64,000 nucleotides of DNA from Thermoanaerobaculia bacterium (GTDB lineage: Bacteria > Acidobacteriota > Thermoanaerobaculia > Multivoradales > Multivoraceae), in contig OZ243982.1 in NCBI GenBank assembly GCA_965214805.1, forward strand, positions 1,237,116-1,301,115, read 5' to 3'. The notes under the pieces were generated by a model. The model did no database searches and had not been told where the DNA came from. It saw only the letters and a list, made by a program, of their open reading frames with translations. Positions 8,150 through 48,408 of the stretch are shown piece after piece (position 1 is the first letter of the stretch; every line of letters begins with the position of its first letter). A program made the translations under genes and the position numbers.

Positions 8150-8225
<76 letters not shown>

Positions 8226-8977: not shown

Positions 8978-9076
8978 GGAAGCGCTCGGGGGCTGGTGCC
9001 TTCCGCGGTCTTCAAAACCGTTGTCCGGGGCGTGATGCGTCACGGGGGTGGGTTCGATTCCCATGCGCTTCCGCCA
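8978..9076 (+). tRNA. selC: tRNA-Sec (selC), anticodon TCA
   Basis: 99 nt: 8-bp acceptor GGAAGCGC/GCGCTTCC, 6-bp D-stem GGGGGC/GCCTTC with a 4-nt loop TGGT, anticodon stem GCGGT/ACCGT with loop CTTCAAA (TCA reads UGA), long variable arm with CGTGA-TGCG-TCACG hairpin, T-arm GTGGG-TTCGATT-CCCAT, discriminator G, CCA. This 8/5 architecture plus the long extra arm is diagnostic for bacterial tRNA-Sec rather than tRNA-Ser. Confidence 0.85.
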
Positions 9077-18594: not shown

Positions 18595-18922
18595 GACGGC
18601 GTATCGTCCATGCGTCGTGAAGTAGTGCGGCTGGCAGGGCCAGGGCGTCTCTCGTCGAGTCTTCCGACCGAGTCACGGAGTCTGACGCCGGCGAACCGGA
18701 ACCCGCACAGTCCCGATTTCGAGATTAGCACGGGGTGGTCCTGTGTCAATCCGGAACGTGTCGATCAGGAGTCGGGTCACGCCCGTCAGGAGCCTGTGTG
18801 CAGAGGCGTCAGGCAGGAGAAGCTTGTGTCAGGCAGGAGAAGACGGCATTCTCTCGTCTCCTGCTTCCACCGGCCTGAGCCGCTTCCCTAGCCTGAACTC
18901 TCGACCGTTCCAGTCTGTTCCC

Positions 18923-19669
18923 ATGTCCTGGTTCACTCCCGCTGCGCTTGTATGGTGCGCGCTCGCCTTTCCGGTGTTCGCCATCAGCCTCAAAGGAAGG
19001 GACCCGACCGGACGGTTCGGCGGCCGCGCCTGGGGACCCGCCATGGACACGCGGTGGGGCTGGTTCCTCATGGAACTGTCCGCCCTGACCGTGTTCCCGG
19101 CCGTCTATCTCGCGGCCGGCGAGCGTCACGCGGTCGGCGATGTCCTGGTTGCGCTGTGGCTTGCCCACTACGTCCACCGCACACTGGTGTGGCCATGGCT
19201 CGTCCAGCGCCAGGCGAGACCGTTCCCCGCCATCACCGCCGTCGCCGGCTTCTGCTTCAACGTCGTCAACGGCGTGTTCCTGGGCTGGTTCATGGCCCGG
19301 ATCGCCGACTATCCGGGTGACTGGCTCACCGACGCACGGTTCCTGGCGGGCGCCGCCCTGTTCGTCGCCGGCGCCGCCCTGAACATCTCCTCCGATTATC
19401 GCCTGTCGTGGCTGCGGGCGAAAGCGGCAGGAGGCGCCGTAATGCCGCGAGGCGGAGGCTTCGATCTCGTTTCCTGCCCCAACCTGGCCGGGGAGATCGT
19501 CGAGTGGACCGGCTTCGCCCTGATGAGCTGGTCGCTGCCCGGGCTCGCGTTCGCCATGTGGACCGCCGCGAATCTCGTGCCGCGGGCGCTCTGGCGGCAC
19601 CGGTGGTACCGGGAGAGATGCCCCGACTACCCACCAACCCGGAGCGCCTTGATTCCCTGGGTGTTGTGA
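18923..19669 (+). CDS. 3-oxo-5-alpha-steroid 4-dehydrogenase (steroid 5-alpha-reductase / DUF1295) family membrane protein
   Basis: ATG at 18923 (MSWFTPAAL...), multi-pass membrane protein with the C-terminal family signature GGGFDLVSCPNLAGEIVEWTGFALMSW...LVPRALWRHRWYRERCPDYPPTRSALIPWV. Transcribed divergently from the suf regulator. Confidence 0.75.
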   Translation: MSWFTPAALVWCALAFPVFAISLKGRDPTGRFGGRAWGPAMDTRWGWFLMELSALTVFPAVYLAAGERHAVGDVLVALWLAHYVHRTLVWPWLVQRQARPFPAITAVAGFCFNVVNGVFLGWFMARIADYPGDWLTDARFLAGAALFVAGAALNISSDYRLSWLRAKAAGGAVMPRGGGFDLVSCPNLAGEIVEWTGFALMSWSLPGLAFAMWTAANLVPRALWRHRWYRERCPDYPPTRSALIPWVL

Positions 19670-24888: not shown

Positions 24889-24963
24889 TGGCTCCTCGGG
24901 AGGGATTCGAACCCCCAACATTTCGGTTAACAGCCGAACGCTCTACCGTTGAGCTACCGAGGA
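24889..24963 (-). tRNA. tRNA-Asn (GTT)
   Basis: Reverse complement TCCTCGGTAGCTCAACGGTAGAGCGTTCGGCTGTTAACCGAAATGTTGGGGGTTCGAATCCCTCCCGAGGAGCCA; perfect 7-bp acceptor, anticodon loop CTGTTAA, T-loop TTCGAAT, CCA encoded. Confidence 0.9.
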
Positions 24964-32799: not shown

Positions 32800-32872
32800 G
32801 GGTCCATAGCTCAGCGGTCAGAGCATCCGGCTCATAACCGGCAGGTCCCTGGTTCGAATCCAGGTGGACCCA
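32800..32872 (+). tRNA. tRNA-Met elongator type (CAT anticodon; tRNA-Ile2 with lysidine cannot be excluded); CCA not encoded
   Basis: GGGTCCATAGCTCAGCGGTCAGAGCATCCGGCTCATAACCGGCAGGTCCCTGGTTCGAATCCAGGTGGACCCA; perfect 7-bp acceptor, G1:C72 paired (so not an initiator), anticodon loop CTCATAA, T-loop TTCGAAT. Confidence 0.85.
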
Positions 32873-36389: not shown

Positions 36390-36704
36390 CTAGTTCACGC
36401 GGCCCGACAGATCGGTGGGGTCGGGCGCCTCCTCGATGACGCCGTGGACATCCTCGTAGCGCCGGAGGTTGGCGCCCAGCGCCCTGATGATTCGCTTCAG
36501 GTGACCGGGGCTGGTCACGATGCGGGCGCTGACGATGCCCTGCGGCGGCACCACGTTGATGAAGTCGAGGATGAACTCCTCGCGCGTATGCGTGATGCGC
36601 AAGAGGTTGGAGTAGGCCCCCTTGAGCTCGGCATCGCCGATCTTGACGTTGATCGACGATGACGACTCCACGTCGCCCTGTTCTTCCCTGGATCGCTTGC
36701 TCAT
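36390..36704 (-). CDS. DUF3467 domain protein
   Basis: 104 aa (MSKRSREEQGDVESSSSINVKIGDAELKGAYSNLLRITHTREEFILDFINVVPPQGIVSARIVTSPGHLKRIIRALGANLRRYEDVHG); ATG at 36704 preceded by GGAGGA and overlapping the wzt stop by 4 nt. Confidence 0.7.
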   Translation of the reverse strand: MSKRSREEQGDVESSSSINVKIGDAELKGAYSNLLRITHTREEFILDFINVVPPQGIVSARIVTSPGHLKRIIRALGANLRRYEDVHGVIEEAPDPTDLSGRVN

Positions 36705-38113
36705 TCCATCCTCCGTGCGTCTGTCGCGCCGACGCGAAGCGGGGGCGCGCTGTCCGAATGGGCAGGCGAACGCCAATCGATCGCCGCTTGCAGGTCGGCA
36801 GCACCGCCATCGCCGCCGGCCAGCGCCTCGACATGCCACTCGTGGCAAGGCAGGTAGAGACCGATGCTCCGCAACGCGGAACTCTCGGCCACCGTGAACC
36901 GCAGCGCCTGGCGACGATAATCGTAAGCCCTGCCGTCGCGGGCGTGAACCGCGACATCGACCGTGTACTCGCCCGGCGCCAGCCGCAGTTCCGGACACGC
37001 CAGTCGCACCCGGACGGGGCCGCGCAGCAGGCGCGTTTCGTACCCGGCGAGATCGGTGTTGGTGCCCCAGCAGTCCACGCCGCGCGGCGTCTTGACCCCG
37101 ACCCCGAAGACGAAGTCGTCCAGTTCTTCCCGCGGCTCGACCTCGAGCTCAAACACCGCCGCCTCGCCGCAGTGCAGGTGATAACGCTCCTCGCAGGCGG
37201 CGCCGGCCAGGAGACGAGCGCCAGTGATCCGGGCCTGGCCGGACCCCCAGCGCAGAACTTCCTCCTCCGCGTCCGGCGGCGGCGCTGTCCCTGTTTCCTC
37301 CGGCCGCGATCTGCGGCGCTCTGCGGCCGCCGCCCGGCGACGGTCGTGAGCCTCGCCCTCGCGCGCGGCCACGGCCTCCAGATAGGCGTCGATCACCCGC
37401 CGCGTCGCACCGATCTCCCGTAGCCGCCCGCGGTCGAGCCAGACCGCCCGGTCGCAGAGTTCGTCGATCAACCCCATCGAATGGCTGACCACGAGCAGCG
37501 TCCCGCCCCGGGAAAGGTGCTCCTCGATGCGGGCGATGCAGCGGTGAACGAACTCCTCGTCGCCGACCGCCAGCACTTCGTCGACCAGGAGAATCTCGGG
37601 GTCGGTGTGGACGGCGACCGAGAAGCCGAGCCGCACGTACATGCCCGAGGAGTAGTTCTTGATCGGTTCCTCGATGAAGTCGCCCAGTCCGGCGAACTCC
37701 ACGATGTCGTCGTAGCGCTCCTCGATGCGGCGGCGGCTCAGACCGAAGAGTGCACCGTTGATGAAGATGTTCTCCCGGCCCGAGATCTCGGGATGAAAGC
37801 CCGCTCCCAGCTCGATCAGGGCGGCGATGCGGCCGTTGACCGTCAATTCGCCGGCCGTCGGCCGCAGCAGGCCCGCGACCAGCTTGATCAGCGTCGATTT
37901 CCCGGAACCGTTGCCGCCGATGATGCCCACCGCCTCCCCCGCGGCGACTTCGAAGCTGACATCCGTGAGCGCTTCGACCGCGTCGGCGGCAGCGAGTCCG
38001 CTGGTCAGGCTGCGCCCGAGGAGGGCGCTCTTCAGCGTTCGCAGGCGATAGCCGCCCGCGGCGCGGCGGTAGCGCTTGCCCACGCCGCGCAGGGCTACCG
38101 CCTGCCGACTCAA
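36701..38113 (-). CDS. wzt: Polysaccharide/O-antigen ABC transporter ATP-binding protein Wzt with a C-terminal Wzt_C carbohydrate-binding domain
   Basis: 470 aa; N-terminal nucleotide-binding domain (GIIGGNGSGKSTL, YSSGMYVRLGFSVA, LLVDEVLAVGDEEF) plus a ~200 aa C-terminal extension with a GVGVKTPRGVDCWGTNT-type motif characteristic of Wzt C-terminal glycan-recognition beta-sandwiches. Confidence 0.85.
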   Translation of the reverse strand: MSRQAVALRGVGKRYRRAAGGYRLRTLKSALLGRSLTSGLAAADAVEALTDVSFEVAAGEAVGIIGGNGSGKSTLIKLVAGLLRPTAGELTVNGRIAALIELGAGFHPEISGRENIFINGALFGLSRRRIEERYDDIVEFAGLGDFIEEPIKNYSSGMYVRLGFSVAVHTDPEILLVDEVLAVGDEEFVHRCIARIEEHLSRGGTLLVVSHSMGLIDELCDRAVWLDRGRLREIGATRRVIDAYLEAVAAREGEAHDRRRAAAAERRRSRPEETGTAPPPDAEEEVLRWGSGQARITGARLLAGAACEERYHLHCGEAAVFELEVEPREELDDFVFGVGVKTPRGVDCWGTNTDLAGYETRLLRGPVRVRLACPELRLAPGEYTVDVAVHARDGRAYDYRRQALRFTVAESSALRSIGLYLPCHEWHVEALAGGDGGAADLQAAIDWRSPAHSDSAPPLRVGATDARRME

Positions 38114-38114
38114 C

Positions 38115-38915
38115 TCAGACCGCCTCTGCCAACGTGTCGCTCAGCCGCGAGAACAGGCCGGCGCCCGCCGCCCAGGAAACCGCCGCGATCGCAGCCATGG
38201 CAGCCCACACCCGCGGCGCCGGCAGGCGTCCGTGAAACAGCAGATCCTGGATCGCCACGGTGAACGAGGTCATCGGGTTCAGTTGCACCAGTCGGGCAAG
38301 CTCGGACGGGATGTCGCCCAGGGTATAGATGATCGGCGCCAGGAAAAACAGCAGAACGAGCACGTTGCCGAGCAGATCCCGCACGTCCTTGAAATGGACG
38401 CCCAACGCCGACAATCCGAACGCGAGGCCCGCGATCATCACCGTCTCGATCACCAGCACGAGCGGCAACAGCACGCAGGTCCAGCCGGCGATGGGATAGC
38501 CGAGCAGCCTGCCGGCGACCAGGGCCAGAGCCACGATCGGCAACGCGAGCAGAAAGTGCAGAAGGTTGGACACCACAGCGACCGCCGGCAGCACCTCGAC
38601 CGGGAGCACCGCCTTGCGGATCAACCCGCTGTTGCCGGTCAGCGACGAACAGCCTTCGAGCAGCGAGGTCGAGAACCAGATCCAGGGGAAGAGACCCGTG
38701 ACGAGGAAGACGCCGTAGGGCTCGACATCAACCAGTTCCCCCCGCTTCAGGATCGCGCCGAAGACGAACGAGTAGACGGCCAGGAGCAGCAGGGGGTTCA
38801 GCAGAGACCAGAAGAAACCGAGCACGGTACCCCGATAGCGCGCCCGCAACTCCCGCTGGACCAGGGTCCACAGCAGGCCGCGGCAGCGAACGAGACATCG
38901 GGCGACCTCCAGCAT
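38115..38915 (-). CDS. wzm: ABC-2 type polysaccharide export permease Wzm
   Basis: 266 aa, six transmembrane segments, ABC-2 family profile (YRGTVLGFFWSLLNPLLLLAVYSFVFG); 1-nt spacing to wzt. Confidence 0.85.
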   Translation of the reverse strand: MLEVARCLVRCRGLLWTLVQRELRARYRGTVLGFFWSLLNPLLLLAVYSFVFGAILKRGELVDVEPYGVFLVTGLFPWIWFSTSLLEGCSSLTGNSGLIRKAVLPVEVLPAVAVVSNLLHFLLALPIVALALVAGRLLGYPIAGWTCVLLPLVLVIETVMIAGLAFGLSALGVHFKDVRDLLGNVLVLLFFLAPIIYTLGDIPSELARLVQLNPMTSFTVAIQDLLFHGRLPAPRVWAAMAAIAAVSWAAGAGLFSRLSDTLAEAV

Positions 38916-38924
38916 GAGCAGCAG

Positions 38925-41108
38925 TCATCTTACGCCCCGGACAGTCTTCTGCTCGATCTCGAGGTAGACGGGAGCGGGACCGAGCTGCACCGGTCCGGAA
39001 GGCAGCACCACGCCATCCCGGTCGCGTGCGGCGCGCACGCCGATCCGGGGACGGCAGGCCCGGCCGCGGCGGTCCAGCGCCCATTGCACCTGGACCTCGC
39101 GGCTCGGCGTCGTTGCCCGATAGCCGCGCACACCCGCCGGCAACGGGAGGCGTTCCACCCGGGCGCCGGCCAACTCGCGCTGGAGCTGACGCAGGGCGCG
39201 GTAGGCCGGCCGCCGTCGCAAGGAACCGCCTCGGGGGTCGACAAGCCCGTAGCCAGCCGCCGACAACTGCCACCAGTAGACGCGCTCGACGAGACCGGTC
39301 CCCAGAGCCTCGAGGCAGTAGCGAACGAGGTAGCTGGCCTGGGTGTCCTCGTCCACCGCGACATCTCGTCCGGCGGGCGCGTGAGGCCCTTCCCTGAGCG
39401 GCCAGTTGAACTCGGTGATCCAGCTCCGATCCGACGCACAGTCCGGAGCCCGACGGGCAAGCGCCCGCAGCAAGGCCAGCTTGCCCGCGAGGTCGAAACC
39501 GAGTTGAGGGTTCTCGGGCGCCCCTCGCCGGTCGACGTAGAGCTGACTGGCAAGGATGTCGAAGCGATGCTCCGGCAAACCCGAATGAACCAGACCGGCC
39601 GTTGCGTGGGGCTCGAAGTCGATCACCGCCGGAGCGAGGACGCGCGCATCCGGATTCGCCGCCCGCACGGCTTCGCCGGCAGCAGCCAGCAGATTCCAGT
39701 ACTCGTCCGGGCGCCACACGCCCCACTTGCTGCGGTTGGGCGCCTGACCGATGAGGAACGTGCTGCCCAGGGGCGAAAGGGCGGCGACGGCCTCCTCCAC
39801 GCGCCGCAGCCAGAGTCCGTTGTCCCGGACCAGCGATCGGTCCTGAGCAAGATGGAACACGAGATCGGCCGGCTGCAGCGCCCTCCGGGCGAGGATCTCC
39901 GCCAATCGCAGCAGATCCCTGTCCAGACCCTGCCAGAGATGGAAGCGCAGCAGAACGCTCTCCACCCCGAGATCGTCGAGCGCCTCGACCAGAGCGCCGA
40001 CCGGCGCCGAGTCCGGACCCACCGCCACGCCAAGTCCGCGAAAGGGGACTCTGTCCGGTGCTCGTTCGATTCTCCGGCGGAGGCGCTTCCCCTCGACGAT
40101 CGTTGCGAGCAGCGGCCCGGCGGCGCGAAGCAGGGGCCGGGCGTGGCGGGCGGCGTCACGCAGGCGAACTCCGAGGCGCTGGCCGCGTGTCGCCTGCTGG
40201 TGCGGCTGGTCAGTGAGCGGATCCCAGACCGCCCGCTCCTGGGGCTTCGCTCCGCGGTCGGAGGCCGGAATGTGGGGATGGGCGCGGCGGCGCGGCAGCA
40301 GCAGATCGGCGAGGCGTCGCAGCCCGCGGCGAGCGCCGTCCTTGGTCCGGATCCTGAGACGGAAGCCGTGGTGACAGACCCCGAACCAGAGCCGCTCCAA
40401 CCGGGACAACCCGCCGGAGCGATAGCCGCGCAGGTACTCCGACCGGTCCGCAGACCGCAACACCGGCATCCTGCCCAGGTCCCGCAGGCGCTGACTCGCC
40501 GACAGCCGGCGCCGGAAGCGGGCCCGGTTGAGATCCACGAGGTACAGCTCCGCATCCGTGGTCGGGGCCGCCAGCAGCACGTTGCCCGAGGTCAGGTCCC
40601 GAAACCAGATGCCGTGACGATGCAACTCCGCGGCCAGAGCGCCGACCCGCCGCAGCAGCGCCGGCCCGTCGATTCCCGGAAAACGCGCCGCGCCCTCTCC
40701 CGCATTCAACGCCCTGAGCACATGCCGCAACTCCGTGGCCTCCGGCACCAGCCGGCACACGAACCACGCAGGACCCTCCAGGGCCTTCGACTCGGCATAG
40801 AGAATCGGTTCCGGCGTCGCGATGCCCAGCTTCCCGAGCCGGCGCGCGGCATCGAAGCTCAGGCGCGCCCGCGTGCCTCGGCGGCGCCGGCGGAGTCTGG
40901 CGTGCAGGTCGTCATGGCGGAACTGCTTCACGACCACGGCGACATCGCCCTCGTTCCGGCTGCCATGCCATGCCGTTTCGTACAGGTAGTTCCTGCCCCA
41001 ATGCAGGCTGCGGGTGGCCTTGGCCGGATCGAGGAGGCGCCTGAGCGCGGCCTCGAAGTTCGCGTCCAGGTCGCCGGGGACGGCCTCCGGCGCCACGGCG
41101 CCGCGCAA
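38925..41108 (-). CDS. Fusion protein: N-terminal lipopolysaccharide-kinase-like domain (Kdo/WaaP family, PF06293-like) plus C-terminal glycoside-hydrolase-like TIM-barrel domain
   Basis: Single open frame with no stops from just after the rng stop to 38925. Residues NYLYETAWHGSRNEGDVAVVVKQF...LHRHGIWFRDLTSGNVLL...LYLVDLNRARF match the Kdo/WaaP LPS-kinase fold. About 450 aa downstream follow with (beta/alpha)8-like periodicity and a WITEFNWP...VYWWQL motif resembling the nucleophile strand of clan GH-A hydrolases (GH5/GH39-like). Start uncertain: TTG at 41108 or GTG at 41096; an upstream ATG would overlap rng by about 200 nt. The 1610 aa track ORF is this gene plus a shadow running through rng and rodA in a different frame. 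Confidence 0.6.
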   Translation of the reverse strand: MRGAVAPEAVPGDLDANFEAALRRLLDPAKATRSLHWGRNYLYETAWHGSRNEGDVAVVVKQFRHDDLHARLRRRRRGTRARLSFDAARRLGKLGIATPEPILYAESKALEGPAWFVCRLVPEATELRHVLRALNAGEGAARFPGIDGPALLRRVGALAAELHRHGIWFRDLTSGNVLLAAPTTDAELYLVDLNRARFRRRLSASQRLRDLGRMPVLRSADRSEYLRGYRSGGLSRLERLWFGVCHHGFRLRIRTKDGARRGLRRLADLLLPRRRAHPHIPASDRGAKPQERAVWDPLTDQPHQQATRGQRLGVRLRDAARHARPLLRAAGPLLATIVEGKRLRRRIERAPDRVPFRGLGVAVGPDSAPVGALVEALDDLGVESVLLRFHLWQGLDRDLLRLAEILARRALQPADLVFHLAQDRSLVRDNGLWLRRVEEAVAALSPLGSTFLIGQAPNRSKWGVWRPDEYWNLLAAAGEAVRAANPDARVLAPAVIDFEPHATAGLVHSGLPEHRFDILASQLYVDRRGAPENPQLGFDLAGKLALLRALARRAPDCASDRSWITEFNWPLREGPHAPAGRDVAVDEDTQASYLVRYCLEALGTGLVERVYWWQLSAAGYGLVDPRGGSLRRRPAYRALRQLQRELAGARVERLPLPAGVRGYRATTPSREVQVQWALDRRGRACRPRIGVRAARDRDGVVLPSGPVQLGPAPVYLEIEQKTVRGVR

Positions 41109-41149
41109 GCCGTCGAGTTCGAACCGGCGCTCCGGTCTCGACTCGGCGG

Positions 41150-42655
41150 TCAGATCCGCCCCCCGGTTTCGGCGTCGACGACAACGAAACGCTCGCGATG
41201 CAATTCCGGGTCCGCCTGAACCAGGATCGGCGCCGCGAACGCCCCCTGCAGGCCGTCCAGCACCGCCGACTCGGCGCCGCGCAGACCATCCAGCACCTCC
41301 GGATGGACCCGCACCGCCAACTGACGAACGCCTCTCCCGGCGCGCGCAAGGCATGTCCGCCGCAGTTCCAGGCAGATCGTCGCGACCGACTTGATGCGGC
41401 CTGCGCCTCCACAGGTCGGGCAGTCCCGGGTCAGCAGCTTCTCCAGGTTCGTGTGGCTGCGGCGACGAGTCAGCTGGACCAAGCCGAACTCCGAGATATC
41501 GAGCACCCTGTGCCTGGCGCGGTCCTTCTCCAGCTCCCGTTCCAGGCGGGCGAACACCTTCTCGCGGTGATCTTCGCGCCCCATGTCGATCAGATCGATG
41601 ACAAGGATGCCGGACAAGTCGCGCAGCCGGATCTGACGCACCGCCTCGACGACCGCTTCCAGGTTGGTCCGCAAGACGGTCTCGTCGAAGTCCGCGGCAC
41701 CGACGTCGCGGCCGCTGTTGACGTCGATGGCCACCAGGGCCTCCGTCTGGTTGATGACCAGATAGCCGCCTGACGGAAGCGGGGCGCGGTCCCGCAGCGC
41801 GGCTTCGACCGCGTCGTCGATCCGATAGCGCTCGAACAGACCCCTCCGGGTCCGCTCCACCCGTTCCCGGAGTTCCGGCTGCATCCGCCCGACGTAGCCG
41901 GCGATGCGGCGGTAGGCATCGGCGCCGTCCACCAGCAGCGAGTCGAAATCCGCGGAGAAGAGGTCCCGGATGACGCGCACATCCAGTTCGTCCTCGCGGC
42001 AGATCAGAGCCGGCGCTGTCGTGGCCGCCGTCCGTTCCTCGATCCGTCGCCAGGCGGCGGCCAGCGCCTCGTACTCCGCCTGGATGCGCTCTTCCGCCGC
42101 TCCTGCCGCGGCAGTGCGCACGATGCAACCCGGCAGAGCAACGGCGTCGTCGCGCCTGGCCTGGACCAGCCCCTTCAGGCGATTTCGTTCGTCCGCGTCC
42201 TCGATGCGCCTCGAAACGCCCACGCGGCCGCTGGTCGGCGTCAGCACCAGGAGCCGACCGGGAAGCGTGATCCGGGCGGTGATGCGCGCCCCCTTCGCCG
42301 CCATCCCGTCCCTGATGACCTGCACGATGAGATCCTGGCCCCGCCGCAGCACGTGATCGATCGCCGGCGCCGCTTCCCTGCTCGGCGCCCCGCGGCAAGC
42401 GCTCTCGGCGACCGGTGCTGCCGACCCCCCTTCGACCGCGTCGTCCGCCCAGAGGTAGCCGTCGCGCGCCAGTCCGAGATCCACGAAGGCGGCTCGCATG
42501 CCAGGCAGCACCCTTCGCACCCGTCCCTTGTAGAGGTTGCCGACCAGGCTCCGGCGTCCGCGGCGCTCGACGAGAAGCTCGACCAACCGGCCGGACTCGA
42601 CCACGGCTGCCCGCGTCTGGAGCGAATCGCTCTCGACCAGGAGCTCCCTGTCCAT
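41150..42655 (-). CDS. rng: Ribonuclease G (RNase E/G family)
   Basis: 501 aa; S1 domain (VGNLYKGRVRRVLPGMRAAFVDLG) and the RNase E/G catalytic core including DLIDM and the CPTCGGAGRIKS zinc link. Confidence 0.9.
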   Translation of the reverse strand: MDRELLVESDSLQTRAAVVESGRLVELLVERRGRRSLVGNLYKGRVRRVLPGMRAAFVDLGLARDGYLWADDAVEGGSAAPVAESACRGAPSREAAPAIDHVLRRGQDLIVQVIRDGMAAKGARITARITLPGRLLVLTPTSGRVGVSRRIEDADERNRLKGLVQARRDDAVALPGCIVRTAAAGAAEERIQAEYEALAAAWRRIEERTAATTAPALICREDELDVRVIRDLFSADFDSLLVDGADAYRRIAGYVGRMQPELRERVERTRRGLFERYRIDDAVEAALRDRAPLPSGGYLVINQTEALVAIDVNSGRDVGAADFDETVLRTNLEAVVEAVRQIRLRDLSGILVIDLIDMGREDHREKVFARLERELEKDRARHRVLDISEFGLVQLTRRRSHTNLEKLLTRDCPTCGGAGRIKSVATICLELRRTCLARAGRGVRQLAVRVHPEVLDGLRGAESAVLDGLQGAFAAPILVQADPELHRERFVVVDAETGGRI

Positions 42656-42697
42656 GCGTTGCGGGCGACCGATCCTGTCCGTGCCGGCGCAGGCCGA

Positions 42698-43816
42698 TCA
42701 GGCGTTGACGAACCGCCGCAGGTCCAGGCCGACGATCAGTCCGGTGGCCGCGCAGCAGAAAAGCATGAAGGAGCCGCCGTAGCTCAGGAAGGGCAACGGA
42801 ACGCCGGTGATCGGCAGCAGCCCGACCACCATGGCCGTATTGTAGAGAACGTGGCCGGCGATGAAGGCCAGGAGTCCGACCACGAGCAGCAGACCCGCAG
42901 GATCCCGCGCCGCCAGTGCCACACGGACGCCGTTCCCCAGGTAGAGGAGGAACAGGGCCATGGCGAGGATGACGCCGGCAAACCCGTACTCTTCTGCCAG
43001 CACCGCGAACACGAAGTCGGTGTGAGCAACCGGCAGGAAGCGCAGGCTGGATTGCGTCCCCTCGCCGAGTCCCTTTCCGAAAGCCTGACCCGAACCGACG
43101 GCGATCCTGCTCTGACGGACCTGGTAGCCCGCCCCCAGTGGATCCGCCTGGGGGCGGAGGTAGCTCAGGACACGTTCCTTCTGGTAGTCCCGCAAGGTGA
43201 AGGTCCAGAGCGCTCCAGCCAGTGCCACTGCGACTGCGGCGGCTGCGAGCGCCGAGCGGCCGCTGACACCGGTAGTGGCCGCCATGGCGGCGAGCACGAG
43301 CACGAACATCAGGGCGCCGCCCATGTCCGGCTGCAGCGCGATGAGCAGCACCGGAACCGCCGCGATCGCCGCGGCTGCCCACAGCCCGCCGCGAGGAGGA
43401 ACCGGGCGCCGATAGCGGGCGAAGCGTCGGGCCAGCAGCAGAACGGTGGCGATCTTGCAGAAGTCCGACGGCTGGCCCCCGAACCCCCCGATGCCGATCC
43501 AGCTGCGGGCGCCGCCTGCCTCGTGGCCGAAGAACGTGACCGCCGCCACCGCCGCCACCGCCGCCAGGTAGATCCAGACGGCGTGCCGAAGCAGCACGGA
43601 ATGGTCGATCAGAGCCGCGGCCACCAGGACCAGCACACCCAGGACGATCCACACCGACTGGCGCGAAACGTAGTTCGTCGGCAGCTCGGCGGAAGCGCTC
43701 GAGATCACGAACAGACCGATCACCGACAGACCGAGCGCCGAACCGACGATCTGCCACGTGATGGAACGGGCCTGGTTCGCCAGGGTCCGCGGATCAGGTC
43801 TGAACGGCAGGATCAA
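42698..43816 (-). CDS. rodA: Rod-shape-determining protein RodA (SEDS family)
   Basis: 372 aa SEDS polytopic membrane protein (HTDFVFAVLAEEYGFAGV, LPFLSYGGSFML); TTG start at 43816 overlaps the mrdA stop by 23 nt. Confidence 0.9.
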   Translation of the reverse strand: MILPFRPDPRTLANQARSITWQIVGSALGLSVIGLFVISSASAELPTNYVSRQSVWIVLGVLVLVAAALIDHSVLLRHAVWIYLAAVAAVAAVTFFGHEAGGARSWIGIGGFGGQPSDFCKIATVLLLARRFARYRRPVPPRGGLWAAAAIAAVPVLLIALQPDMGGALMFVLVLAAMAATTGVSGRSALAAAAVAVALAGALWTFTLRDYQKERVLSYLRPQADPLGAGYQVRQSRIAVGSGQAFGKGLGEGTQSSLRFLPVAHTDFVFAVLAEEYGFAGVILAMALFLLYLGNGVRVALAARDPAGLLLVVGLLAFIAGHVLYNTAMVVGLLPITGVPLPFLSYGGSFMLFCCAATGLIVGLDLRRFVNA

Positions 43817-45545
43817 AGTACGTCTCGTGCAAACGCTTCGCCAGCGGCGCGGCGGCTTCGGAGCCTCGTCCTCCGTGTTCCACGAGCACGACGACGACCA
43901 GCTCCGGCATCTCGACCGGCGCGTAGGAAGTGAACCACGCGTGATCTCCGTGCTCGGGCGGGAGGTCCTCGGACCGCGTCCACGTCGCCTGAGCGACGAC
44001 CTGGGCAGTGCCTGTCTTGCCCGCGATCGGAACGACCCGCGTGCTGGCGCGGCGCCCGGTCCCGTTCGCGACCACGTTCGCCAACGCCTCCCCGACGAAG
44101 GCCATCACGTCGCCATCCACGGCAATCGACGCCGGCGGCTGCGCTCCGCCCTGCAGCACGTGGGGCCTAACCCGGAATCCCCCGTTCGCCACCGCCGCGG
44201 TCATTGCGGCAACCTGAAGCGGCGAAGCGAGCACCGGCCCTTGGCCGATCGCCACCGAAATCGTCTCGCCCGGGTACCAGGGGAAACCCCGGCTCTCCCG
44301 ACTCCAATCGGGATCCGGCACCAGCCCCTCGCGTTCGGCGGGAAATTCGATGCCTGTTCGCCGACCGAGGCCCAGCAAACGGGCGTACCGGGCGATCCTG
44401 TCGATTCCCATCCTGCGGCCCTGCAGGTAGAAGTAGATGTCGCAGGAATGCTGCAGGGCGCCTCGGAGATCGAGGCGGCCGTGCCCCCTGGACTGCCAGC
44501 AACGCCAGCGGCGGCCGTACACACGGGTCGTGCCGCCGCAGTGGACTCGCTCGGCCGGATCGATCAGTCCGTCGGACAGCGCGGCCACGGCCATCACGAT
44601 CTTGAACACGGATCCCGGCGGGTAGGTGTTGTGGATGGTCCGGTTCTGAAGCGGTCCGGCCGGGGCTCCGACGATCCGCTCCCACTCCTCCTGGTCGAGG
44701 CGGCCTGCAAAGCCGTTCGGATCGAAGGACGGCGAGGAGACCATGGCCCGAACCGCGCCGTCCCGCGGGTCGAGGGCAACGATCGCTCCAGCCTTGCCTT
44801 CGAGCAGTTTCTGCGCTTCCTGCTGCAGTGCAAGATCGATGGTCAGAGTGACCGACTCGCCCGGCAGCGCATCGGTTCGCTTGACGTCCTCGCTCGACAC
44901 GATGCGGCCGCGGCTGTCGACGATCACGGTTCGCGCGCCGGCGGTCCCGCGCAACTCCTGGTCCCGCAACCCCTCCACGCCGCTGCGGCCGATCAGGTCG
45001 CCGGCAACGAGGGTCGGGTCGCTGTCCCGTTCGGCCGGCGTCGGCTCGCTCAGGTAGCCCAGAAGATGCGCGGTCTGCTCGCCGTACCGGTACAGGCGGC
45101 GCCACGTGGCCGCGATCTCGAACTCCGGGTGCTCCGAGATGTCGCCAGCGACCTCGAACCGCGCGACCTGGTTGAACTCGAGTTCCTCGGCCAGGAGCAC
45201 GGGCACATCCCGAGGCACGCCGCGGTATCGCTCGAGCACTTTCTCCAGTTCGGTTTCGTCGCGACCCAGGACGTTGGCTGCAAAGGCCAGGCTGGCTTCC
45301 GGATCGGCACTCCGCAGGCGATCGAAAAAGAGCCGGAACGTGGGAACGTTCTCGGCCAGAAGGTGACCGGAGCGGTCGTATATGGGACCCCGAAGCGCTT
45401 CCAGGCGGAGCACCCGCAGCCGGTTGTTCTCTGCAAGCTCCAGATAGTGCTCGGAACGAACGATCTGGACATGCCAATAGGAACTCAGAACAACGAGGAA
45501 CGCCGCCGCGAGCGATGACGCGAGTCTTCTCAGGCGGGTCGCCAT
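43794..45545 (-). CDS. mrdA: Penicillin-binding protein 2 (elongasome transpeptidase)
   Basis: Internal ATG at 45545 (MATRLRRLASSLAAAFLVVLSSYWHVQIV); dimerisation domain plus transpeptidase with SVFK (SxxK), SDG-like and KTGT motifs. Confidence 0.9.
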   Translation of the reverse strand: MATRLRRLASSLAAAFLVVLSSYWHVQIVRSEHYLELAENNRLRVLRLEALRGPIYDRSGHLLAENVPTFRLFFDRLRSADPEASLAFAANVLGRDETELEKVLERYRGVPRDVPVLLAEELEFNQVARFEVAGDISEHPEFEIAATWRRLYRYGEQTAHLLGYLSEPTPAERDSDPTLVAGDLIGRSGVEGLRDQELRGTAGARTVIVDSRGRIVSSEDVKRTDALPGESVTLTIDLALQQEAQKLLEGKAGAIVALDPRDGAVRAMVSSPSFDPNGFAGRLDQEEWERIVGAPAGPLQNRTIHNTYPPGSVFKIVMAVAALSDGLIDPAERVHCGGTTRVYGRRWRCWQSRGHGRLDLRGALQHSCDIYFYLQGRRMGIDRIARYARLLGLGRRTGIEFPAEREGLVPDPDWSRESRGFPWYPGETISVAIGQGPVLASPLQVAAMTAAVANGGFRVRPHVLQGGAQPPASIAVDGDVMAFVGEALANVVANGTGRRASTRVVPIAGKTGTAQVVAQATWTRSEDLPPEHGDHAWFTSYAPVEMPELVVVVLVEHGGRGSEAAAPLAKRLHETYFDPAVQT

Positions 45546-45616
45546 CAGGAGCACCACGCCGTCGGCGCTGCGCTCGCGGCCAGGAGCTTCCAGGTTCACC
45601 TTCCAGACACCCCTGC

Positions 45617-46153
45617 TCAGCGAAGACGCAGCTGCCGGCGTGTCAGTGCACGCCGCTTCGTCCGGCTCTCCCTGCGGCCTCGCATCCGATCCTTCACCCA
45701 GAGAACGACCAGGCCCACCGCTGTCGTCAATACCACGCGCAGCAGCACGGCGCCCGCGCCCGGTCTGAACTGTGCAAGCTCGAGCATCGCGAACAGGCCG
45801 ATCACGACTGCCTGATGAACCAGCACCCCGATCGCGATCAGCGTCAGGGTCACCAGCCGCTCGGTAGCGAGAACCCGCTGCGAGACGCGCGCAGCGCCAT
45901 AGCCGACCACACAGCACGCCACACCGTGCAAACCGGGAACCGACGACGTGACGAGGTCCTGGACCAGGCCTGCGGCCAGTCCGCCTGCCAGACCTCGAAG
46001 GGAATCGCCCGGAACGCTGTTCAGGACAACCAGCAGCACGAAGAGGTCGACGGTTTCGGCGGCCTTCGAGGAGATCGCGCCGAACAGCATGTCGACCAGG
46101 GCAACTGCCGCCAGGACGCCGACGAACCTGGCAGCCCTACCGGCTGCTGCCAT
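45617..46153 (-). CDS. mreD: Rod-shape-determining protein MreD
   Basis: Small polytopic membrane protein immediately after mreC; start ambiguous (ATG at 46153 overlapping mreC by 17 nt, or at 46090). Confidence 0.65.
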   Translation of the reverse strand: MAAAGRAARFVGVLAAVALVDMLFGAISSKAAETVDLFVLLVVLNSVPGDSLRGLAGGLAAGLVQDLVTSSVPGLHGVACCVVGYGAARVSQRVLATERLVTLTLIAIGVLVHQAVVIGLFAMLELAQFRPGAGAVLLRVVLTTAVGLVVLWVKDRMRGRRESRTKRRALTRRQLRLR

Positions 46154-46976
46154 CCGCGCCGTCCATGCCGACTTCGGGCAGGGGTTCGCGGCGCCACACG
46201 AAGGCATGGCTCAGCGAACCGAGATCCACGCTCGGGACGATTCGTATGTCGTGGAACAGATCGCCCTTCGACTCCACGGACGTGATCGTGCCGATCGGAA
46301 CGCCGCGGGGGAACACGCCGTCGATTCCGGCAGTGACGACCCGATCGCCAGGTCGGACATCGACCCGAAGCGGCAGGAACATGAGGGACAGAGCGCCTGC
46401 GTCGGCCGTGCCCCGGACGATGCCCTGCCGGCGCGTGCGCTCGACCATCGCGGCCACCGAAGACGCCCGGTCCGTGACCAGGAGTACCCGCGCGTACTTG
46501 CCGCTGGCCGAGACGACACGGCCCAAGAGGCCGTCCGTCGTGGTCACCGGACGCCGCGCCCAGTCTTCCCGGTCTCGGCCGCCAGGCAGGTGCAGGATCG
46601 CCGTTCGCCGCCGCGAGCGGTGATCGACATGGACGATGTCGGCCCGCTGCAGATCAGCGCGCGGCGCCGGCTCGAAGCGCAGCGGCGCCGAAGCGAGATC
46701 TGCTTCCAGCCGCGCACCCACCGCGGCCGCATGGGCGGATTCCAGGTCACGCAGCCGATTCCGCAGCTCCTCGTTCTTCCGCTCCAGCTCGGCCCTCGTG
46801 GAACGGTCCTCCCTGTAGCGGTCCACAGCCCGGCCAACAGCCGCGACGAACCTCTTGACCGGTCCGTCGAGCCGCAACGCGACGTTGTCTGCCTGCTCGG
46901 GCGCCCGAAGCGTCAGCAGCGACAGGAGGACAGCCACGACAACCGCGAACAGGACCGCTATCCAACGTTCGCTCAT
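46137..46976 (-). CDS. mreC: Rod-shape-determining protein MreC
   Basis: 279 aa; N-terminal TM helix, coiled coil (LERKNEELRNRLRDLE), C-terminal beta-barrel domains (GDRVVTAGIDGVFPRGVPIGTI). Confidence 0.85.
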   Translation of the reverse strand: MSERWIAVLFAVVVAVLLSLLTLRAPEQADNVALRLDGPVKRFVAAVGRAVDRYREDRSTRAELERKNEELRNRLRDLESAHAAAVGARLEADLASAPLRFEPAPRADLQRADIVHVDHRSRRRTAILHLPGGRDREDWARRPVTTTDGLLGRVVSASGKYARVLLVTDRASSVAAMVERTRRQGIVRGTADAGALSLMFLPLRVDVRPGDRVVTAGIDGVFPRGVPIGTITSVESKGDLFHDIRIVPSVDLGSLSHAFVWRREPLPEVGMDGADGSSR

Positions 46977-47089: not shown

Positions 47090-48106
47090 CTAGCGAACGG
47101 AGACCCTTCGCAGCAGATCGATGTCCCGCAGTACCTGGCCCGCTCCGAGCGCGACGCAGGCGAGCGGATCCTCGGCGGCGAAGGCCGGCAGTCCCGTGGC
47201 CTCACGCAGACGCTGGTCCAGCGAGCGAAGCAGCGCTCCGCCGCCGGTGAGCACGATGCCCTTGTCCATCACGTCGGCCGAGAGTTCCGGCGGCATCCGT
47301 TCCAGGGCCTGAAGCACCGAATCGACAATCGACTTCACCGGCTCCGCGAGCGCTTCCCTGATTTCTCCGTCGGAGATCCTCAGACCGCGCGGCACGCCCG
47401 CGACGAGGTCGCGGCCCTTGATGTCCATCTGCAGCGTCTTCTGGAGCGGGAAGGCAGACCCCAGTTCGATCTTGATCGCCTCCGCGGTCCGCTCGCCGAT
47501 CAGCATGTTGTGCTTGCGCTTGAGGTGCTGGGCGATCGCTTCGTCCATGGCGTTGCCCGCCACCCGCAGCGAGCGGCTGTAGACCGTGCCGGCAAGCGAG
47601 ATGACGGCGACGTCCGTTGTACCGCCGCCGATATCGACGATCATGTTGCCGGTCGGTTCGGTGATCGGCAGACTGGCCCCGATCGCTGCCATCATTGCCT
47701 GCTCGACCAGGAACACCTCCGAGGCGCCGGCGCTCATTGCCGATTCCCGGACCGCGCGTTTCTCGACCGGAGTGATCTCGGACGGCACGCCGATCACGAT
47801 TCGGGGGCGGGCAAAGCGCCGGCCGTGGTGGGCCCTGCGGATGAAGTGCTTGAGCATCTGCTCGGTCATGTCGAAGTCGGCGATGACCCCGTCCCTCATC
47901 GGCCGCACGAGCGCCAGGATGCCCGGCGTACGGCCCAGCATCTCCTTGGCCTCGGAACCGACTGCCTCGATGCGGTTGGTCTGGTTGTTCACGACCACCA
48001 CCGACGGCTCGTGAACGACGATGCCGTTCTCCTGGTTGAACACCAGGGTATTCGCGGTCCCCAGGTCGATTGCCAGGTCGCTCGAGAACCAGGGCAGCAT
48101 GCGCAA
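47090..48106 (-). CDS. mreB: Rod-shape-determining actin homologue MreB
   Basis: 338 aa; DLAIDLGTANTLVF phosphate-1 motif, VIGVPSEIT, DIGGGTTDVAVISL. Confidence 0.95.
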   Translation of the reverse strand: MRMLPWFSSDLAIDLGTANTLVFNQENGIVVHEPSVVVVNNQTNRIEAVGSEAKEMLGRTPGILALVRPMRDGVIADFDMTEQMLKHFIRRAHHGRRFARPRIVIGVPSEITPVEKRAVRESAMSAGASEVFLVEQAMMAAIGASLPITEPTGNMIVDIGGGTTDVAVISLAGTVYSRSLRVAGNAMDEAIAQHLKRKHNMLIGERTAEAIKIELGSAFPLQKTLQMDIKGRDLVAGVPRGLRISDGEIREALAEPVKSIVDSVLQALERMPPELSADVMDKGIVLTGGGALLRSLDQRLREATGLPAFAAEDPLACVALGAGQVLRDIDLLRRVSVR

Positions 48107-48408
48107 TGGACCGAACCTCCTAGGAAGCGGCGCGGTGCGCGCCGCGTGCTGCCGGGCTTCGGGTTGTCGCCGGCGCCGGCGCGCCTTTCGTCAACAAGGT
48201 CGGATTCCCGCCACAGGAAGCGGGCAAACGTGCTTGAAGATAACACAGGCAGGCGCATCGACTGTCGCGGGAAGATCCCGTGTTCGGAACGGGTTTCGGC
48301 GAATGACGGCGCGGCTGCGGCCGACGGCGGCGACGCCCGGCCGACGGGAGGCGCGCCAGTCCTGCTACCATCGGCGGCGCCGTCGCGCACCCGTCAGGAA
48401 CCGCTTCC

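Follow-up and report, generated by a model that had tools for sequence, protein, structure and literature searches.

A Wzt ATPase with a Wzt_C-type carbohydrate-binding domain and a constant DUF3467 partner in Thermoanaerobaculia

Gene and domain organization of wzt

We analyzed a stretch of 64,000 nucleotides from a Thermoanaerobaculia bacterium (assembly GCA_965214805.1, contig OZ243982.1, positions 1,237,116 to 1,301,115), referred to below as the window, with respect to wzt, a gene on its minus strand that encodes the ATPase subunit of an ATP-binding cassette (ABC) polysaccharide exporter. An earlier note on this DNA had flagged the interval 36701-37420 as coding for a C-terminal extension of Wzt that resembles glycan-terminus-recognition domains; this interval corresponds to Wzt residues 232-470 plus the stop codon. 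The gene and the parts of its product are located as follows (window positions):

36701..38113, minus strand: wzt, 470-aa ATPase subunit of an ABC-2 polysaccharide exporter
37355..38113, minus strand: nucleotide-binding domain (NBD) and start of the hinge helix (residues 1-253)
37256..37354, minus strand: end of the hinge helix and poorly conserved linker of low model confidence (residues 254-286)
36857..37255, minus strand: predicted Wzt_C carbohydrate-binding domain (residues 287-419; translation checked)
37055..37069, minus strand: WGTNT motif (residues 349-353)
36704..36856, minus strand: C-terminal tail of Wzt (residues 420-470)

According to codon-position GC the wzt frame is coding. It starts with a TTG codon 1 nt past the stop codon of the permease gene wzm, and P0001, a Wzt homologue with 98% identity, was likewise called at 470 aa. 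A look-up of the exact Wzt sequence gave no entry, and the comparisons are based on close homologues. In the translated minus-strand open reading frame (ORF), VLRWGSGQARITGARLL represents residues 286-302 and GVGVKTPRGVDCWGTNT residues 337-353.

The best solved relative of the protein is the full-length Wzt of Aquifex aeolicus (8dku, E=3.8e-73). Pfam placed the ABC_tran domain at residues 49-180, and the alignment with the A. aeolicus ATPase domain runs over residues 49-253 and stops there, in agreement with the earlier note, which had let the NBD end near residue 250 and be followed by an extension of ~200 aa. An equivalence of A. aeolicus Tyr233 with Tyr244 was considered but dropped, since Tyr233 faces Leu245 in this alignment. 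In an AlphaFold2 model built with 64 homologues as input, the mean predicted local distance difference test (pLDDT) was 84. It reached ~90 over most of the NBD, with lower values at residues 21-40 and 101-110. Residues 237-268 form a long hinge helix, which is followed by a low-confidence linker (residues 269-286, with pLDDT <50 at 275-284). Identity to distant family members was 72% in the ATPase domain, 60% in Wzt_C and 25% in the linker. In the tail (residues 420-470), Y420, P422 and W426 are conserved, and two short strands are predicted. In known Wzt carbohydrate-binding domains, the C-terminal strand is swapped between the subunits of the dimer (PMC9445017), and by analogy the tail may be the exchanged strand of the domain dimer.

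Assignment of the C-terminal extension to the Wzt_C family

A profile search with PF14524 (Wzt_C) matched residues 287-419 with E=1.2e-24 and 87.3 bits, compared to a gathering cutoff of 30.4 bits, and covered profile positions 3-140 of 143. When the 239-aa fragment was searched on its own, it matched PF14524 with E=3.5e-25. Among solved carbohydrate-binding domains, sequence matches of the fragment were obtained with those of A. aeolicus (8dky/6o14, E=8e-9), Raoultella terrigena (5hno, E=2.8e-4) and Escherichia coli O9a (2r5o, E=1.5e-3). The beta-rich pattern that had been proposed for the extension was borne out by the AlphaFold2 model, in which residues 294-409 are all-beta with nine beta strands and a pLDDT mostly above 90. 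The GTNT-type motif read in it also held up, as the asparagine of WGTNT occupies the alignment position of Asn313, a cap-binding residue in A. aeolicus Wzt. At the sequence level, the extension was thus confirmed as a bona fide Wzt_C domain, that is, a domain of the type predicted to bind sugar-chain ends, for which a jelly-roll (beta-sandwich) fold is expected. This makes it genuine but ordinary: the domain call is routine, and homologues in public databases are already labelled PF14524.

Predicted binding pocket

In A. aeolicus Wzt, Asn313, His350 and the backbone of Ile299 orient the cap sugar, which is 3-O-methyl-mannose. Leu300, Thr346, Ala348 and Trp362 form the pocket for its methyl group, and residues 352-356 make up a trap loop that closes over it (PMC9445017). 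The equivalent positions were taken from a HMMER alignment, where the PDB chain numbering is the native numbering plus one:

A. aeolicus Asn313: Asn352 in this Wzt (N of WGTNT)
A. aeolicus His350: His390
A. aeolicus Ile299: Val338
A. aeolicus Ala348: Ala388
A. aeolicus Leu300: Gly339 (methyl pocket, altered)
A. aeolicus Thr346: Asp386 (methyl pocket, altered)
A. aeolicus trap loop 352-356: RDGRA, residues 392-396

Asn352, Asp386, Ala388 and His390 are invariant in the 64 Wzt homologues, and the same holds true for W349, G350, R344, Y383, Y397, D398 and Y399. As far as can be judged from the alignment, the sugar-orienting part of the site appears to be retained and the methyl pocket to be rebuilt. 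Since Gly339 and Asp386 replace residues of the methyl pocket, the cap recognized by this Wzt is predicted to be a different one and not a 3-O-methyl sugar.

A DUF3467 gene follows wzt

Immediately downstream of wzt lies a small gene on the same strand:

36390..36704, minus strand: DUF3467 gene, 104 aa (PF11950)

Its product matched PF11950 with E=3.2e-18 and 66 bits (cutoff 25), and its ATG start codon overlaps the wzt stop codon (ATGA). In all testable related loci a DUF3467 gene is present after wzt. It is located directly 3' of wzt in 12 of these loci (L001, L002, L004, L005, L006, L088, L089, L091, L113, L123, L144, and L169), and in locus L168 one gene sits between the two; L008, with its truncated Wzt, and L138, which reaches the end of its contig, are left out of the count. 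The gene inserted ahead of DUF3467 in L168 is glycerate-kinase-like. In this locus wzt itself is in fragments (L168:4437-8285; ABC_tran 114 aa, Wzt_C 71 aa), which reflects either a decayed copy or frameshift errors of long reads. In L008, which derives from Candidatus Multivorans thiocomprendens, the Wzt frame diverges past residue ~420 into an antisense AMP-ligase gene (L008:10001-11995) and DUF3467 is missing, owing to a deletion or rearrangement or to misassembly.

The DUF3467 protein has ~40 invariant positions, and neither a signal peptide nor a membrane segment was seen in it. Its profile gave nothing significant against the PDB (best E=0.029), it had no match in NCBIfam, and among the matches listed in a homologue search there were close relatives only. 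Nothing relevant was found in the literature on DUF3467 or on Thermoanaerobaculia in combination with lipopolysaccharide (LPS).

A genome scan for Wzt that was seeded with ATPase-domain motifs returned mostly loci of other phyla, with L008 as the sole close relative, and served as a negative control. At the Wzt loci of other phyla (L009-L087), neither DUF3467 nor the kinase fusion described below adjoins Wzt. Two of the loci, L009 and L010, represent other lineages with a related Wzt_C domain. In both, a small cytidylyltransferase-like gene (PF01467; L009:11302-11826, L010:11250-11720) is located after wzm-wzt in the place of DUF3467, and no glycosyltransferase was found in the five neighbouring ORFs tested per locus. 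In the testable related loci, DUF3467 is the only constant partner of wzt.

The constant presence of this companion, a small cytoplasmic protein that could be a partner of the Wzt_C domain, is compatible with a structural or regulatory reason for the retention of Wzt_C, such as dimer stabilization, modulation of the ATPase or docking of DUF3467, with no recognition of a cap; the loss of the cap-pocket residues Leu300 and Thr346 fits this explanation as well. However, the sugar-contacting Asn and His and the aromatic residues W349, Y383, Y397 and Y399 are invariant throughout the homologues, and in characterized systems the domain is essential for the export of capped chains (PMC9445017). We therefore consider a purely structural or regulatory role highly improbable.

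Genomic setting of the transporter genes

The genes preceding wzt on the minus strand are the following; the kinase fusion gene, which lies between rng and wzm, is described in the next section:

47090-48190, minus strand: mreB
46137-46976, minus strand: mreC
45617-46207, minus strand: mreD
43794-45917, minus strand: pbp2
42698-43816, minus strand: rodA
41150-42655, minus strand: rng
38115..38915, minus strand: wzm, 266-aa ABC-2 permease (PF01061, E=7e-19)

In the direction of transcription, the order is mreBCD-pbp2-rodA-rng-kinase fusion-wzm-wzt-DUF3467. The wzm product showed sub-threshold similarity to galactan Wzm and KpsM in NCBIfam. The intergenic gaps from rodA to DUF3467 amount to 42, 41, 9, 1 and -4 nt. 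A scan for promoters and terminators from mreB to DUF3467 remained at background level, with no site in the gaps between rodA and DUF3467. Co-transcription of this run of genes with wzm-wzt is likely.

The remainder of the 64 kb codes for housekeeping functions, including a SUF system, transketolase, PEP carboxykinase, rpoD, dnaG, mutS2, ruvAB, gyrA, and others, and the flanks in L001, L002, L004, L005 and L006 consist of housekeeping genes, too. Among ~48 ORFs tested across the window there was no glycosyltransferase, methyltransferase or nucleotide-sugar gene, nor was a Kdo (3-deoxy-D-manno-octulosonic acid) transferase-like gene found among the window ORFs tested. The locus is not a canonical ABC-transporter-dependent O-antigen cluster. 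Homologues of this Wzt come from Acidobacteriota, mostly from metagenome-assembled genomes of Thermoanaerobaculia and Holophagales; the closest named genome is that of Candidatus Multivorans thiocomprendens (Thermoanaerobaculia), with 82% identity.

Some further features of the window were noted. A selenocysteine tRNA is present at 8978-9072 (plus strand; Rfam RF01852, 69 bits) and ordinary tRNAs at 8150-8222, 24892-24963 and 32800-32872; the Rfam scan of the window yielded tRNAs only. The ORF at 18686-19666 (plus strand), which adjoins an Rrf2-SUF cluster, encodes a domain of the steroid 5-alpha-reductase/polyprenol-reductase type (PF02544, E=1e-44).

The kinase fusion gene and its linkage to wzm-wzt

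Between rng and wzm lies the gene that the earlier note had named as the prime candidate for the capping activity:

38925..41108, minus strand: kinase fusion, 727 aa (PF06293), neighbour of the transporter genes

Its TTG start aligns with the Met of its homologues. A longer ORF of 1610 aa in the same frame (38925-43757, minus strand) was rejected as a gene; by codon-position GC it is a high-GC artefact of which only the last 727 codons are coding, and upstream of these the frame runs out of phase across the rng and rodA genes.

The sole Pfam match of the kinase fusion is PF06293 (E=2e-11, 44.2 bits, cutoff 21.3), and no methyltransferase domain was found by Pfam. The AlphaFold2 model (pLDDT 89, predicted template modeling score 0.83) comprises a kinase of the WaaP/Kdo family (residues ~1-235), a region of long helices (236-349), a (beta/alpha)8 barrel (359-612) and a beta-sandwich (650-718); the two long helices between kinase and barrel span residues 236-270 and 308-349. 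The closest solved relative of the kinase domain is WaaP of Pseudomonas aeruginosa (6dfl; E=1.3e-12 with the family profile, 2e-9 with Foldseek), an LPS core heptose kinase. WbdD, the capping enzyme of E. coli O9a, was neither among the top 60 profile matches nor among the top 50 Foldseek matches. All 53 homologues share K61, D171, N176 and D192, which, judged by their position in the motifs, probably represent the catalytic residues of the kinase domain. The barrel matched glycoside hydrolase (GH) families GH30, GH39 and GH51 of clan GH-A in Foldseek (E ~1e-11). Assigned by motif position, the invariant Glu566 (ITEFNW) would lie at strand 7, where GH-A enzymes have their nucleophile Glu, and the N-E motif of strand 4 would correspond to the invariant pair Asn458-Arg459, which places Arg459 at the site of the GH-A acid/base Glu. 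No signal peptide or membrane segment was seen in the kinase fusion, which is therefore presumably cytoplasmic like known terminators. The family consists of proteins of 700-800 aa, and all named matches are from Acidobacteriota (Thermoanaerobaculia, Holophagales).

The conservation of the gene neighbourhood was analyzed in a synteny scan of 80 metagenome loci that carry the kinase fusion. In 37 of the ~48 loci with enough upstream sequence, rng is located directly upstream of the kinase gene, and in L001, L002, L005, L006 and L007 the kinase start lies at the rng stop or overlaps it. A subgroup of the kinase with ~42-44% identity has no rng upstream (L093, L097, L101, L102, L105, L109, L111, L112, L120, L147, L153, L167), and the rng linkage is thus not universal. 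Where 6 kb or more of downstream sequence was available (27 kinase loci), wzm-wzt was present in six loci and absent in 21; L007, too, has the kinase without the transporter. Conversely, L004 contains the wzm-wzt-DUF3467 cassette with no kinase fusion gene within 10 kb on either side, and the 8 kb shown for L168 include the cassette but no kinase fusion gene. The occurrence of the kinase without wzm-wzt and of the cassette without the kinase means that they are separable units, which are neighbours in this clade only.

These data bear on the possibility that the kinase fusion phosphorylates the terminal sugar in a manner similar to WbdD of E. coli O9a, in which case Wzt_C would recognize this phosphate, perhaps after processing by the barrel, as the cap. 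The kinase gene and wzm belong to a tight same-strand run and are separated by 9 nt, and the kinase gene is adjacent or nearly adjacent to the transporter genes in L001, L002, L005, L006, L008, L088, L089, L091, L113, L123, L138, L144, and L169. The sugar-kinase family assignment with its WaaP match, the four invariant residues read as catalytic, the presumed cytoplasmic location and the precedent for a phosphate-based cap (PMC3482155) point in the same direction. However, the more constant neighbour of the kinase is rng, most loci with sufficient downstream sequence lack wzm-wzt, two cassettes have no kinase in the sequence shown, and the enzyme resembles WaaP, ranks WbdD outside its top matches and has no methyltransferase domain. 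In addition, an anionic cap is not what the invariant Asp at the position of Thr346 would lead one to expect. Taken together, the evidence argues only weakly for the kinase as capper, and we consider this explanation rather unlikely. A capper role is nevertheless conceivable because the protein appears to be cytoplasmic, sugar-kinase-like and probably co-transcribed with wzm-wzt here, and adjacency is not required for function. What stood of the earlier proposal is a possible capper; its prime status did not. Alternatively, the kinase fusion may act in the sugar metabolism of the cell wall or of the LPS core.

Proposed mechanism and nature of the exported glycan

Every characterized Wzt with a Wzt_C domain recognizes a modified chain end (PMC9445017), and for this reason it is reasonable to infer that the substrate of this Wzt is a capped polymer, as had been proposed. 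By homology with the A. aeolicus, O9a and R. terrigena proteins, the Wzt_C dimer probably reads a modified glycan end for export by Wzm. A lipid-linked polysaccharide would be assembled at the cytoplasmic face of the membrane, its modified non-reducing end would be bound by the dimer of Wzt_C domains, and the chain would then be passed to the Wzm channel, with ATP hydrolysis powering export. The identity of ~60% in Wzt_C across Thermoanaerobaculia and the position of the cassette among housekeeping genes point to a recognized terminus that is conserved class-wide, and not to that of a strain-variable O antigen. The genes for glycan synthesis and for the actual capping enzyme probably lie elsewhere.

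Several points weigh against this interpretation. Glycan recognition in this clade is assumed by homology, with no synthesis genes nearby, and the ORF screen on which the latter statement is based covered ~48 ORFs, with regions such as those at about 14.5-16.7 kb and 57-58.8 kb outside it. Both structure-search lists of Wzt were filled by matches to the ATPase domain and contained no domain-only superposition on the O9a structure. The pocket mapping derives from one pairwise alignment (residues 313-395) that assigned no counterpart of Trp362. Finally, the exported polymer may be something quite different from an O antigen.

The last point concerns the identity of the substrate and is compatible with recognition of a modified glycan end by Wzt_C. 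The polymer could be teichoic-acid-like or another conserved envelope glycopolymer tied to cell elongation, the terminus of which is read by Wzt_C. The NCBIfam scores of this Wzt for TagH and for galactan Wzt were similar, at 204 and 212 bits, respectively, and both below their cutoffs, and the cassette directly follows the mreBCD-pbp2-rodA-rng operon in many lineages. Judged by enterobacterial Wzt, the conservation of Wzt_C is far above that expected for a variable O antigen, and the L009 and L010 relatives with a cytidylyltransferase-like gene after wzt also fit a polymer of this kind. On the other hand, all solved Wzt_C domains are from O-antigen systems, and Acidobacteria are diderms expected to make LPS. 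Moreover, the mre linkage is broken in L004 and L168 and may be a mere inherited gene order. An envelope glycopolymer other than an O antigen is therefore a possibility that we hold tentatively but do not favour.

The recognition of a modified, class-wide glycan end by Wzt_C would mean that members of an uncultured class of acidobacteria export a polysaccharide with a conserved mark at its non-reducing end. In the predicted recognition pocket, the Asn and His that orient the sugar are retained, and the methyl pocket is not. DUF3467, a family to which no function is assigned, emerges from the analysis as the constant companion of this Wzt, and the analysis cautions that adjacency alone is insufficient to name a neighbouring kinase as terminator. 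A further-reaching scheme combines Wzm, Wzt with its Wzt_C domain, and DUF3467 as a so far unrecognized cytoplasmic accessory protein in a housekeeping module of all Thermoanaerobaculia that would export a conserved capped envelope glycan, with the kinase-barrel protein as a new chain-end modifier that couples glycan completion to the elongation operon. As a whole, this scheme is a long shot.

Comparison with known systems

In this Wzt, a Wzt_C domain is located C-terminal to a Wzt/TagH-type ABC ATPase, and wzm is adjacent. On sequence grounds, it can be assigned to the Wzt ATPases with a carbohydrate-binding domain, of which those of A. aeolicus, E. coli O9a/O8 and Klebsiella pneumoniae O12 are the best understood. 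The overall identity to Wzt of the A. aeolicus WzmWzt transporter (7k2t, 8dku, 8dky, 6o14) is 31%. Compared to the latter, the protein described here has Gly339 and Asp386 for Leu300 and Thr346 and RDGRA as trap loop; its linker is longer, and it has an additional tail of ~50 aa.

As in E. coli O9a Wzt (2r5o, E=1.5e-3), Wzt_C is fused to the ATPase. The O9a system also provides, with WbdD, the precedent for a kinase-made cap; WbdD, which is encoded in the O-antigen cluster, combines a methyltransferase with a eukaryote-like kinase and a coiled coil (PMC3482155). In terminators of the WbdD type, an extended coiled coil serves as chain-length ruler. In contrast, the neighbouring kinase here is WaaP-like, carries a GH-A-like barrel and no methyltransferase, and shows genomic linkage to rng and not to wzt. 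It also differs from WaaP itself, a stand-alone protein of ~260 aa, by its additional parts, namely the long helices, the (beta/alpha)8 barrel and the beta-sandwich. The Wzt of R. terrigena and K. pneumoniae O12 (5hno), which recognizes terminal Kdo, shares the Wzt_C domain (E=2.8e-4), but it is distant in sequence, and the window contained no Kdo-transferase-like gene among the ORFs tested.

In summary, the system differs from the known ones in four respects, which are the predicted pocket residues, the class-wide conservation of the Wzt_C domain, the absence of linked synthesis genes among the ORFs tested, and the constant presence of DUF3467.

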